From contig JAHFSU010000002.1 in assembly GCA_023265595.1 (NCBI GenBank), positions 21,105 through 85,104 of the forward strand: 64,000 nt of DNA. The letters are read 5' to 3'. This document shows positions 1 through 6,793 of the stretch, piece by piece. The notes under the pieces are model-generated. The model did not search any database and was not told the DNA's origin. It saw only the letters and a list, made by a program, of their open reading frames with translations. This DNA comes from Deltaproteobacteria bacterium (GTDB lineage: Bacteria; UBA10199; SPLOWO2-01-44-7). The position numbers were made by a program, and so were the translations under genes. Positions within the stretch are counted from its first letter, which is position 1. Each line of letters begins with the position of its first letter.

Positions 1-1003
1 GGCTTAGCTCCTGTTCGACGCGGGAAATAAAATAGGAATGAGAATAGAGTTGATATTCCGGGTCGATAATTTCATGCGCTTTTAATTCCCGAATATAATT
101 CGCGCGTCCGATCGACCGAGATGCCCAATTCAAAAGAAAGGAAAAAAGATTAATGGTCGCCGAATTGAAATTTAAAAAGGAGATACTTTGCACACTCATC
201 ACACCAACAACATCCCCGGTCTCCCCGTTGCGAAGAGGCCCTGCAATCACCGCGTCTCCAAGCAATGCCGATTTTTGTTTTTCTCCCGGACGCAAAAAAT
301 CGCGAACCGTCACCACCTTGTTCGAGGCGGCCGCCAACCCGATGACCCCTTCATTCCAATGGATGACCTCGGGCCTTTTTTCATAATCCTGCCAGCCGAT
401 CTTTCCTTTCACCTGCAAAACATCTCCCTCTTTCAGATACAGGGCCGATTTTTCAGCGTCGAGTGTCTTGGTTATAAATTCCAGAATCGCACCGTACAAC
501 TCTTCCAAATAGACCGATTCCAGACGTCGCGCCCCCTCATAAAGAGTGATGATCGTAGCCATCCGGGTTACTACCTTTTTCTCCAAACCGACATGGATCT
601 CTTTTAAGGTCTGTATTTCATCCGTCAGCAATTTTTCCGTCTGTTCCAATGCTTGTTTTTCCTTTGTCTGGCGGTCGAGCGTGGCCTGATAACGCCGTAC
701 CCCGACACCCACCAAAACACCGACCAAAATGAAGAAACTGGGAAGGATATAAAAAGTGATATCCTCAAAAAGATAACGTTCCAAAAAAACCCATGCAGAA
801 TAAAGGTAGAGCAGAGCGGAAAGAACTCCGGAAATGAGGCCGGCGATCACGCCGTAACGAAATCCGAAAAGAAGAATTCCGATCCAATAGGGATGAGGAT
901 CCACACCGATAAAACCGGGAAACTGGGGCAATAAAAACCGGTTGACCCCGAAAAGGAGCGCAAAGAAAACAGGGATTTCATAAAGATAAGGATGTTTTTT
1001 CAT
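1..1003 (-). CDS. Partial CDS, 5' part only; the gene continues beyond the window edge. It encodes a membrane-anchored GAF-domain protein, PelD-like (N-terminal TM helices, coiled coil, GAF, start of a GGDEF-like region).
   Basis: My own minus-strand translation from the ATG at 1001-1003 runs 334 codons without a stop to position 1 (MKKHPYLYEIPVFFALLFGV...GDAVIAGPLRNGETGDVVGVMSVQS...). The first ~100 aa are hydrophobic, then a GAF-like block follows. The ATG overlaps the stop of the upstream receiver gene (ATGA). The ORF track omits it, probably because it is edge-truncated. Confidence 0.45.
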   Translation of the reverse strand, partial: MKKHPYLYEIPVFFALLFGVNRFLLPQFPGFIGVDPHPYWIGILLFGFRYGVIAGLISGVLSALLYLYSAWVFLERYLFEDITFYILPSFFILVGVLVGVGVRRYQATLDRQTKEKQALEQTEKLLTDEIQTLKEIHVGLEKKVVTRMATIITLYEGARRLESVYLEELYGAILEFITKTLDAEKSALYLKEGDVLQVKGKIGWQDYEKRPEVIHWNEGVIGLAAASNKVVTVRDFLRPGEKQKSALLGDAVIAGPLRNGETGDVVGVMSVQSISFLNFNSATINLFSFLLNWASRSIGRANYIRELKAHEIIDPEYQLYSHSYFISRVEQELS

Positions 1004-1368
1004 GATCCCAGCAACTGTCTGATTTTTTCAACCAACCCCTGAGGTTCAAACGGTTTCATCACATAATGAATGTCATTCTGGAGCAGCAATTTCCGTTCGG
1101 CGTCGTTCAATGTTTTTGCCGAAAGGGTAATGATAGGTGTTTTTTGATAGTTTTTCATTTTTCGCAACAATTGGATCAGATCAAAACCGTTGATATTGGG
1201 CATCATCAGATCCGTCATAATCAGATCATACTGTGTCTTTTGAACAGCATCGTTGACCTCTTGCGGATCATTCAGGGCATCGGCATGAAAATCATGAAAA
1301 TAGAGCAGCGTGCACATCAGCTCTGTAAAATCTTTTTCATCATCAATAATTAAAATTTTTTTCGTCAT
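1000..1368 (-). CDS. Single-domain response regulator (CheY-like receiver)
   Basis: 122 aa with the DD pair (IIDDEKD), phospho-acceptor Asp (IMTDLMMP), Ser/Thr (ITLSAK) and Lys (VMKPF) of REC domains. It lies between the PelB-like and PelD-like genes. Confidence 0.85.
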   Translation of the reverse strand: MTKKILIIDDEKDFTELMCTLLYFHDFHADALNDPQEVNDAVQKTQYDLIMTDLMMPNINGFDLIQLLRKMKNYQKTPIITLSAKTLNDAERKLLLQNDIHYVMKPFEPQGLVEKIRQLLGS

Positions 1369-5954: not shown

Positions 5955-6793
5955 CTTCCGATCGTTCCCAGTTGGGTCAGACTCGGTTCCGTCAGATACC
6001 AGTGATACTTCTTTTTTTCAGATCTTTTGATTCCATATTTTTCAACATCAGGATTATTCGAATAATCATAAAGAATATTGAAAACCGGTTTTTTGAAATG
6101 TTTCCGAAAGGCATCGAGCCTTTCTTCCTTGTATTGTGAATCAGACAGGGGGGTTTTGCCGCAGGTTCGGGTTGCAAAGTCACAACGGGTGTATAAATCT
6201 TCCACAACCACCCCATAAATAATATCCCCATAATCTTCGAGCAACTCAATGGCATTATTGGGCACAAGCAGAAGATTAGGAAATTTTTTATGCAGCAATC
6301 GGAAAAAATCGATCATCGCTTTTCTCGAACCGGAAAATTTTTCAGGATCTTTTGCCTCCAGATACATTGCCATATCGACACTATCCAAAAATAGACCCTG
6401 ATACCCCTTTTCCAAAATTTTAGGGATCACCTTTTCGAGCAACAGTTTTTGCCACTTTTGGGAACGGATATCGACTTGCCATGCCCCTTGCCAATGGGGA
6501 TTGGCCGCCACAACAAAATCGCTCTCTGCAATTTCAGGCCAATAGCCTCGACTGTCATTAACCTCACCGAGACTCAAATACCCGAAGAAAATAGTCTTTT
6601 TATTACCTGTTTTGGAAGGGGTGATGTTATCCGGTTCCAAAATAGCCAAATCCACTTGCATCAGCATTCTTGGGGAGAGTTCATTACCGTAAAAAACCAA
6701 CCAGCGAATAGGACGTTCCCTGCTGAAAAACCAGACAAACCCAAAAACAAGCGGTATCAAAACCAATAAAAAAAATTTTATTTTGATGTCCAT
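5951..6793 (-). CDS. GH114-like glycoside hydrolase (PelA hydrolase-domain/TM1410-like), membrane-anchored
   Basis: 280 aa. N-terminal TM anchor. The internal motif KGYQGLFLDSVD resembles the GFDG(V/I)FLDN(V/L)D signature of GH114 enzymes. Family recalled from memory, not searched. Confidence 0.5.
   Translation of the reverse strand: MDIKIKFFLLVLIPLVFGFVWFFSRERPIRWLVFYGNELSPRMLMQVDLAILEPDNITPSKTGNKKTIFFGYLSLGEVNDSRGYWPEIAESDFVVAANPHWQGAWQVDIRSQKWQKLLLEKVIPKILEKGYQGLFLDSVDMAMYLEAKDPEKFSGSRKAMIDFFRLLHKKFPNLLLVPNNAIELLEDYGDIIYGVVVEDLYTRCDFATRTCGKTPLSDSQYKEERLDAFRKHFKKPVFNILYDYSNNPDVEKYGIKRSEKKKYHWYLTEPSLTQLGTIGR

Follow-up and report, generated by a model that had tools for sequence, protein, structure and literature searches.

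How is synthesis of the Pel exopolysaccharide controlled in a bacterium whose pel operon carries a gene for a single-domain response regulator directly in front of pelD? Pel is among the most widespread biofilm polysaccharides and, to our knowledge, the only known post-translational control of it is the binding of cyclic di-GMP (c-di-GMP) to PelD. The question is raised by a stretch of 64,000 nucleotides (nt) from an uncultured bacterium (NCBI label "Deltaproteobacteria bacterium"; GenBank assembly GCA_023265595.1, contig JAHFSU010000002.1, positions 21,105 to 85,104 of the forward strand), which is called the window here. An earlier note on this DNA had described five minus-strand genes at positions 1-6793 as a Pel-like locus, in which PelA is split into a hydrolase and a deacetylase gene and a CheY-like receiver stands in the place of pelC, and had suggested that phosphorylation controls polymer export. 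Our analysis leaves little doubt that the locus is a Pel-type operon. On the evidence of gene neighbourhoods in related loci, the receiver and a HEAT-repeat protein encoded just beyond the window edge are inherited together as an accessory pair, which marks off a distinct subtype of Pel.

All five genes are present on the minus strand with the sizes that the note had assigned to them (Table 1). The pelA_H/pelA_DA and pelA_DA/pelB junctions each consist of a 4-nt overlap, the receiver gene follows pelB after 6 nt, and the ATGA sequence in which the receiver stop codon overlaps the pelD start codon, described before as coupling, can be read directly from the sequence; neighbouring genes in the pel string thus either overlap by 4 nt or stand 6 nt apart. 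An independent Logan assembly of the same genome (L001) equals window positions 1-10492 with 1 mismatch and extends 6.1 kb further. Beyond coordinate 1 it supplies the rest of pelD, followed by pelE, a gene for a 653-amino-acid (aa) HEAT-repeat protein, pelF and pelG. The prediction that pelE, pelF and pelG lie there was borne out for all three genes, while the HEAT-repeat gene between pelE and pelF, being located past the window edge, had been missed. With RR for response regulator, HK for histidine kinase and dGGDEF for a degenerate GGDEF domain, the full string reads [RR-HK-HK(dGGDEF)-RR-RR]-pelA_H-pelA_DA-pelB-RR-pelD-pelE-HEAT-pelF-pelG. A promoter and terminator scan yielded no intergenic terminator-like site on the minus strand of positions 1-10800; such sites occurred at chance level, and the scan is only weakly informative.

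The identity of the cytoplasmic and inner-membrane components was deduced from profiles, structure models and orthologues. PelF (L001 13797-15257, 3.3 kb past window coordinate 1) matches the NF038011 equivalog with 490.9 bits against a cut-off of 100, as well as PF11997 (E 3e-81) and GT1; it is a cytoplasmic GT4 glycosyltransferase with a DUF3492 N-domain. PelG matches PF16933 with an E-value of 3.2e-119 over 440 aa and has multiple hydrophobic segments. PelD, which is completed in L001 (9490-10845; 451 aa), consists of four transmembrane (TM) helices, a coiled coil, a GAF domain and a degenerate GGDEF domain with an RxxD I-site. A phmmer search against the PDB gave only weak GGDEF matches for PelD, so that a profile and an AlphaFold2 (AF2) model were needed. 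The profile matches the GGDEF region and the GAF region of PelD from Pseudomonas aeruginosa (PaPelD). The AF2 model (predicted local distance difference test score, pLDDT, 87) comprises four N-terminal helices, a long coiled coil, a GAF domain and a GGDEF-like domain, and was matched by Foldseek to the PaPelD structures 4etz, 4dn0 and 4euv with E-values of about 1e-9 to 1e-10. Among 80 homologues, the I-site residues R377 and D380 are kept in 76 and 79, respectively, and the GGDEF motif itself is degenerate. With its intact RxxD I-site, PelD is a putative c-di-GMP receptor. PelE is a 329-aa membrane and helical-repeat protein in L001 with two hydrophobic segments within residues 34-82. A BLAST search of canonical PelE from three proteobacterial plasmids against the loci gave no match; the identity was recovered by hhalign, in which a profile of 11 orthologues aligned with the three canonical sequences at a probability of 96.8% and an E-value of 2.9e-10 over 283 columns spanning both proteins.

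The pelA/B/D/E/F/G genes are thus present as a full set in canonical relative order, and all Pel components except PelC were found with intact catalytic or ligand-binding residues. The profile matches of PelE, PelF and PelG, the fold of PelD and the PelA residues described below confirm that the earlier note had recognized a Pel locus correctly: the hydrolase and the deacetylase both belong to PelA-related families, and the genes downstream of pelD are pelE-, pelF- and pelG-like. The window also contains a Tad-pilus secretin, which points to a host with an outer membrane. By its gene content, the locus is a complete, functional-looking operon for synthase-dependent exopolysaccharide production in an uncultured diderm bacterium. 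Its product is inferred from the conserved residues of PelF, PelA_H and PelA_DA to be partially deacetylated alpha-1,4-N-acetylgalactosamine (GalNAc), i.e., Pel.

The receiver encoded between pelB and pelD is a 122-aa protein that matches PF00072 only (E 3e-21, residues 5-117 of 122). It has no output domain, signal peptide or lipobox and shows the canonical cytoplasmic CheY fold. In 13 aligned sequences the residues D9, D10, D53 and K105 are invariant, position 83 is Ser or Thr, and a private motif, SAKxLxDxERKxLL...KPFEP, lies on alpha4-beta5. Across loci the orthologues are 47-62% identical to it, compared to 28-35% for the three other receivers of the window. Wherever the pelB-pelD junction is visible in the main clade (window, L003-L005, L009-L013, L019-L021, L023-L026, and L030), the receiver gene is located there, its distance to the start of pelD being -3 to +57 nt. 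In a distant clade (L056, L059, and L062), whose PelD proteins are 23-33% identical, a receiver with a related motif overlaps the pelD open reading frame (ORF) by 4-8 nt. Together the two clades hold the receiver in the same position in 15 non-redundant loci, and it is a conserved and integral member of the operon. In the Elusimicrobiota loci (L006-L008) no receiver is found at the pelB-pelD junction, and a motif-bearing receiver is divergently encoded at the operon head. The place that the receiver has in the main clade is taken there by a low-complexity stretch, which in L008 (8606-10000) comprises about 450 Ala/Glu/Lys-rich codons in frame upstream of pelD.

The HEAT-repeat protein lacks an N-terminal signal sequence. 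Its AF2 model (pLDDT 91) shows about 40 helices that form a solenoid similar to the scaffolds PP2A-A and karyopherin, within which three internal stretches are mildly hydrophobic. Foldseek matched the model to generic solenoids only (karyopherins, CAND1, and PP2A-A), which gives no functional clue. The idea that the protein might be a duplicated cytoplasmic domain of PelE was rejected after hhalign (23.9%). Among 38 non-redundant loci in which both positions are visible (PelD collapsed at 90% identity), receiver and HEAT-repeat gene are both present in 16 and both absent from 22, with no locus carrying one without the other. The loci that contain the pair form two separate groups in rough neighbour-joining (NJ) trees of PelF and PelG; therefore, either the two genes were jointly gained or lost on more than one occasion, or both were retained together over very deep divergence. 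We consider it likely that the two proteins are dedicated partners of Pel. That pel operons vary through the gain, loss and rearrangement of genes and through fission of pelB is known (PMC7112194), and in the literature searched we found no account of a pel operon that includes a response regulator or HEAT-repeat gene. The locus is an undescribed variant of the known Pel system and not a categorically new one.

The split of PelA, which the note had counted among the standout differences of the locus, is real, as the two ORFs with their 4-nt overlap show, yet it is no special mark of the locus. The 280-aa protein matches Glyco_hydro_114 (E 3e-21), so that the GH114 assignment was correct and only the accession has to be changed from PF03659 to PF03537. 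Among proteins of solved structure, its best match is the PelA hydrolase domain 5tcb (E 1e-17), and the catalytic glutamate of this domain (PaPelA E218, mutated in 5tsy) is kept as E198 (codon 6200-6202). Residues 1-26 constitute an N-terminal hydrophobic anchor or signal. Judged by these matches, the protein is a homologue of the PelA endo-alpha-1,4-N-acetylgalactosaminidase domain. For the 684-aa protein, the label CE4 (PF01522) was dropped, since the protein has no Pfam family at E <= 0.01 and no NCBIfam match; phmmer instead aligned it over 600 residues to residues 256-855 of the PelA chain 9cgy_A (E 6e-67), a structure from P. thermotolerans (PMC12022489). The alignment spans the mixed alpha/beta, CE21 deacetylase and beta-rich domains of PelA, and a Sec-type signal peptide is present. 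H266-x-D268-x-D270, H338-x3-H342 and H488 align with H515/D517/D519, H589/H593 and H750 of PtPelA, so that the HxDxD, Hx3H and YYHFYSG motifs hold the CE21 catalytic base, metal triad and catalytic acid (residues according to PMC12022489). The PelA deacetylase is classed as CE21 and has only distant structural similarity to CE4 and CE18 (PMC12022489).

Separate genes prevail among the relatives. In the 120 best homologues of the deacetylase, all complete proteins are stand-alone and roughly 680-720 aa long, with the exception of one 959-aa fusion of hydrolase and deacetylase. This fusion (L019 2458-5337) is located in an otherwise identical operon of the same receiver/HEAT clade, and PelA fission and fusion therefore flip within one lineage. 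A PelD profile recovered 67 further metagenomic loci, and in these the hydrolase and the deacetylase nearly always have a gene each, in either order. Thus, the split is a common and labile state. It has already been described for Gram-positives (PMC7112168, PMC7890745), whereas the Gram-negative literature stresses full-length PelA because searches required >85% coverage (PMC12022489). The pelA_H gene is absent from the otherwise complete receiver/HEAT operons L009, L011, L013 and L023, which fits reports that hydrolase activity is dispensable for synthesis.

The 842-aa protein had been described as a TPR and beta-barrel porin. It has an N-terminal membrane helix, clear matches to many TPR families in Pfam, and a C-terminal domain ending in ...GHWF. 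A BLAST search of canonical PelB against the loci gave no match, a phmmer search of the protein against the PDB returned TPR proteins only, and the barrel hidden Markov model (HMM) had no match in the PDB. The identity of the barrel therefore rests on orthologues and on hhalign: BLASTP gave a gap-free alignment of the C-terminal 291 aa with the L010 orthologue (5e-37), which passes PF24604 (B-barrel_PelB_C) with 37.2 bits against a cut-off of 31, and hhalign with canonical PelB C-termini gave 72.7% and an E-value of 3e-5. The TPR part of the description is thus clear, and the barrel part follows transitively. The protein is about 350 aa shorter than PaPelB (1193 aa according to PMC12022489). 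In the Elusimicrobiota loci L006-L008, pelB is split into two ORFs, a TPR part and a barrel part.

No pelC was found in the operon or in the 64-kb window. A canonical PelC query from a B. thailandensis plasmid, validated against 5t10 and 9h80, had no tblastn match in the window or in L001-L014. A PelC HMM built from three sequences found nothing in the six-frame ORFs of the window (>=60 aa) or in any receiver/HEAT locus, and seven small or unannotated window ORFs (a 1,452-aa concatenation) yielded no PelC against the PDB; three ORFs outside the latter query (47036-47713, 48252-48830, and 52108-52929) were covered by tblastn and the PelC HMM. The same HMM detects PelC in L029, L032, L033, L043 and L077, which share the operon type pelC-pelA_H-pelA_DA-pelB(two ORFs)-pelD-pelE-pelF-pelG without receiver and without HEAT-repeat gene. 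In L032, L033, L043 and L077 pelC is the first gene, and the position of pelC is therefore variable.

Upstream of pelA_H, at a distance of 32 nt and in the same direction, lies a set of two-component genes (6826-10493) that the note had missed. The genes for the 127-aa and 123-aa response regulators overlap each other and the PAS kinase gene by 4 nt, and the genes for the 265-aa kinase and the 137-aa receiver probably head the run of co-directional genes. The scan also showed promoter-like sites, as weak evidence, at 10022-9995 and 10590-10562. Homologous regulators are encoded upstream of the pel genes in L003, L004, L009, L013, L019, L021 and L023, and similar sets of kinase and receiver genes precede the pel genes in L003, L009, L013, L019, L021 and L023. 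The degenerate GGDEF domain of the PAS kinase (RKKD...TLKDF) keeps an RxxD I-site at canonical spacing, and the L013 orthologue keeps RRED...PLKAF. By analogy to SgmT, the PAS kinase may sense c-di-GMP and serve the pel-linked receivers. A secreted M15-family (DUF882) peptidase is encoded divergently from the head of the two-component/pel string.

We infer from these data, as on the whole the probable reading, a Pel subtype that keeps the c-di-GMP site of PelD and in addition possesses a phospho-receiver/HEAT module acting on the cytoplasmic synthase complex. PelF would polymerise a GalNAc-type chain at the inner-membrane complex of PelD, PelE and PelG, which c-di-GMP would still gate via the I-site of PelD. 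The receiver would be phosphorylated at D53 (in loci that have them, by the kinases encoded in the operon) and would then bind a cytoplasmic component via its conserved alpha4-beta5 face. Its most likely partner would be the HEAT solenoid as a scaffold and/or PelD, to which the receiver is translationally coupled. Such binding would switch the assembly or the activity of the PelD/E/F/G synthase and thereby add a two-component input to c-di-GMP. The polymer would be deacetylated by PelA_DA on the TPR array of PelB, trimmed by membrane-tethered PelA_H and exported through the PelB barrel, with PelC absent or encoded elsewhere. That the receiver acts directly and post-translationally is quite possible in our view. 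More tentatively, we propose the whole as a machine with two switches, one being c-di-GMP at the PelD I-site and the other a dedicated phospho-CheY that assembles or activates PelDEFG on a HEAT scaffold of ~20 repeats and/or on PelD; the kinase may sense c-di-GMP via its I-site GGDEF domain, and export would proceed through the shorter PelB without PelC. The note had placed the phosphorylation control at polymer export instead, which is unlikely, as the receiver is coupled to the cytoplasmic module of pelD and the HEAT-repeat gene.

Several observations speak against a dedicated receiver/HEAT module or weaken its support. L010, L011 and L012 lack the adjacent kinases upstream, so that the input is modular and not fixed. 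The co-occurrence counts are phylogenetically non-independent and the NJ trees are crude. The distant-clade receivers score 97-111 bits on the pel-receiver HMM, which is no better than generic receivers, and their orthology accordingly rests on position and a partial motif. No fusion of the receiver to PelD or to the HEAT-repeat protein ("Rosetta stone") was present among the homologues tabulated, and a contact of the receiver with any Pel protein is a prediction, as are, from the genes alone, the expression of the operon and Pel as its product. Regarding export, the barrel of the window's own PelB stays under the Pfam threshold, with no match to PF24604, and PelC could be encoded elsewhere in the genome.

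The main rival explanation is that the receiver is only a relay or phosphate sink of the upstream multi-receiver set, which would act on transcription or on cellular c-di-GMP, and that its adjacency to pelD reflects operon convenience. Such a relay would fit a gene string that encodes four single-domain receivers together with two soluble kinases. Chemotaxis-like systems provide established cases of branched phosphorelays with sink receivers, and as one kinase has an I-site GGDEF domain, c-di-GMP and phosphorylation may be integrated upstream of Pel. However, the pel receiver forms an orthologous group distinct from the other receivers of the window and has its private alpha4 motif, it stays beside pelD where no kinase gene is nearby (L010-L012), and its perfect co-occurrence is with a HEAT-repeat gene that has no evident role in a phosphorelay. 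We therefore regard the relay or sink as a rather unlikely, albeit serious, explanation. It is also conceivable that the operon makes a polymer other than Pel and that receiver and HEAT-repeat protein belong to machinery that merely shares parts with Pel. PelB, PelD and PelE have diverged strongly from their proteobacterial counterparts (no BLAST match or E > 1e-8), an extra large protein is inserted beside the glycosyltransferase, and, as Bundalovic-Torma et al. warn, the products of divergent pel operons may differ (PMC7112194). Against this, PelF reaches nearly fivefold the cut-off score of the equivalog, the residues with which PelA acts on alpha-1,4-GalNAc are retained in the hydrolase and the deacetylase, and the set of pel genes is full and canonically ordered, which makes a non-Pel product decidedly improbable. 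The replacement of PelC by the receiver, with phosphorylation controlling export through PelB, as the note had it, can hardly be right: the receiver does fill the pelB-pelD junction, which is the place of pelC in pelABCDEFG, and no PelC was detected in the window, L001 or any receiver/HEAT locus, but this agreement is positional only, as a cytoplasmic receiver without signal sequence cannot substitute for PelC, an outer-membrane lipoprotein ring that faces the periplasm around PelB (PMC12022489), the Elusimicrobiota receiver lies away from the junction, and pelC itself changes its position.

In comparison with the P. aeruginosa-type pelABCDEFG operon, the locus with the proposed receiver/HEAT module agrees in its parts and in the relative order pelA(B)...D-E-F-G. 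PelF with GT4 and DUF3492, PelG, PelD with TM, GAF and degenerate GGDEF regions and RxxD, PelE as an inner-membrane helical-repeat protein, PelB with TPR and porin parts, and the PelA hydrolase and CE21 deacetylase residues are all kept. It differs in that PelA is encoded by two genes and not as one bifunctional polypeptide, in the lack of a detectable pelC, and in the extra receiver before pelD and the 653-aa HEAT-repeat protein before pelF, which are absent from the canonical loci L015-L017. With the Bacillus cereus genes pelDEA_DAFG and pelA_H, it shares a stand-alone deacetylase (with a weak DUF2194 signal), a stand-alone hydrolase gene adjoining the operon (PMC7112168, PMC7890745) and control by c-di-GMP via the PelD I-site, which is predicted for the window. 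In contrast to that system, the window locus belongs to a diderm, has PelB and the Gram-negative gene order, its deacetylase carries a cleavable signal peptide instead of a membrane anchor, and receiver and HEAT-repeat genes are unreported for Gram-positive loci. A Fusobacteriota diderm, Cetobacterium somerae (plasmid NZ_CP143320.1, L018), has its genes in the Gram-positive-type order pelA_H-pelD-pelA_DA(DUF2194)-pelE-pelF-pelG, and neither pelB nor pelC is annotated in the vicinity.

For the two proposed inputs there are precedents outside of Pel. In Myxococcus xanthus, the phosphorylated single-domain regulator EpsW activates the phosphoglycosyl transferase EpsZ by direct binding, which phosphorylation enhances (PMC12802240). 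As in this system, a response regulator consisting of a single domain is encoded together with exopolysaccharide genes, and by analogy a post-translational binding mechanism may be proposed (PMC12802240, PMC4671073). EpsW acts in a Wzx/Wzy-dependent pathway, whereas the pathway of the window is synthase-dependent, the likely partners are PelD and the HEAT-repeat protein, and control by c-di-GMP is present alongside. SgmT uses a GGDEF receptor domain with an I-site to bind c-di-GMP and regulates extracellular-matrix genes (PMC3509222). The PAS kinase likewise ends in a degenerate GGDEF domain, with RxxD five residues before the degenerate motif and putative c-di-GMP binding. It differs from SgmT in its PAS-HK-dGGDEF architecture without a receiver domain and in that single-domain receivers take the place of the DNA-binding DigR.

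If the receiver acts on the synthase as proposed, a phosphorylation signal from a two-component system enters the Pel synthase directly in some bacteria, which would parallel EpsW-EpsZ in a different pathway class. If the two-switch scheme holds as well, the locus would be the first phosphorylation-gated synthase-dependent exopolysaccharide system and a PelC-independent Pel exporter in a diderm. Apart from the mechanism, the survey corrects a simplified view of Gram-negative Pel systems, namely that of a bifunctional PelA and of a PelB that requires PelC: among environmental diderms, the split form of PelA is the usual one, and pelC has moved to the operon head or is undetectable nearby. It also provides a simple annotation rule for pel loci that are mostly labelled "hypothetical" or "HEAT repeat protein" in metagenome-assembled genomes. 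These results are useful to specialists in Pel, biofilms and two-component systems, and the predictions are readily testable.

Table 1. Positions of genes and gene groups in the window, counted from its first nucleotide.
Feature	Position	Strand	Basis
pelD, 5' part, ORF open at window edge (first 334 of 451 codons)	1-1003	-	
Single-domain CheY-like receiver, 122 aa	1000-1368	-	ORF listing
pelB-like export protein, 842 aa	1375-3903	-	ORF listing
pelA_DA-like deacetylase, 684 aa	3900-5954	-	ORF listing
pelA_H-like glycoside hydrolase, 280 aa	5951-6793	-	ORF listing
Single-domain response regulator, 127 aa	6826-7209	-	PF00072
Single-domain response regulator, 123 aa	7206-7577	-	PF00072
PAS-HisKA-HATPase kinase with C-terminal degenerate GGDEF, 480 aa	7574-9016	-	Pfam and L013 alignment
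Second soluble histidine kinase, 265 aa	9086-9883	-	Pfam
Fourth receiver, 137 aa	10080-10493	-	Pfam
Secreted M15-family (DUF882) peptidase	10574-11344	+	
ORF, 525 aa	14841-16418	-	
ORF, lipoprotein-like, 575 aa	17843-19570	-	
ORF, 744 aa	35818-38052	-	
Two small overlapping ORFs, 85 and 76 aa	38308-38782	-	Sequences only
ORF, 1125 aa	41454-44831	+	Pfam
ORF, 439 aa	45185-46504	-	
Tad/Flp-type pilus cluster	47036-54380	-	
Lipoprotein, 617 aa	54613-56466	-	
FtsZ	56509-57777		N-terminal sequence only
FtsA	57818-59074		N-terminal sequence only

The remainder of the window contains further recognizable genes. Four ORFs of 744, 575, 525 and 439 aa have no Pfam match at E <= 1e-4, and the 1125-aa ORF has one AAA domain only. 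The two small overlapping ORFs have the look of a RelE/ParE-type toxin and antitoxin. The Tad/Flp-type pilus cluster encodes a CpaF-like ATPase with a ParA/CpaE-like domain either fused to it or in front of it (642 aa), a secretin (506 aa), RcpC/CpaB (273 aa) and, on sequence inspection alone, membrane proteins like TadB/C and small ORFs like TadE. The 617-aa lipoprotein, which has an SLT lytic transglycosylase domain and three LysM domains, adjoins the cell-division genes for FtsZ and FtsA. The genes that follow FtsA are, by their position only, candidate ftsQ/ddl/murB/murC/murG-like genes.

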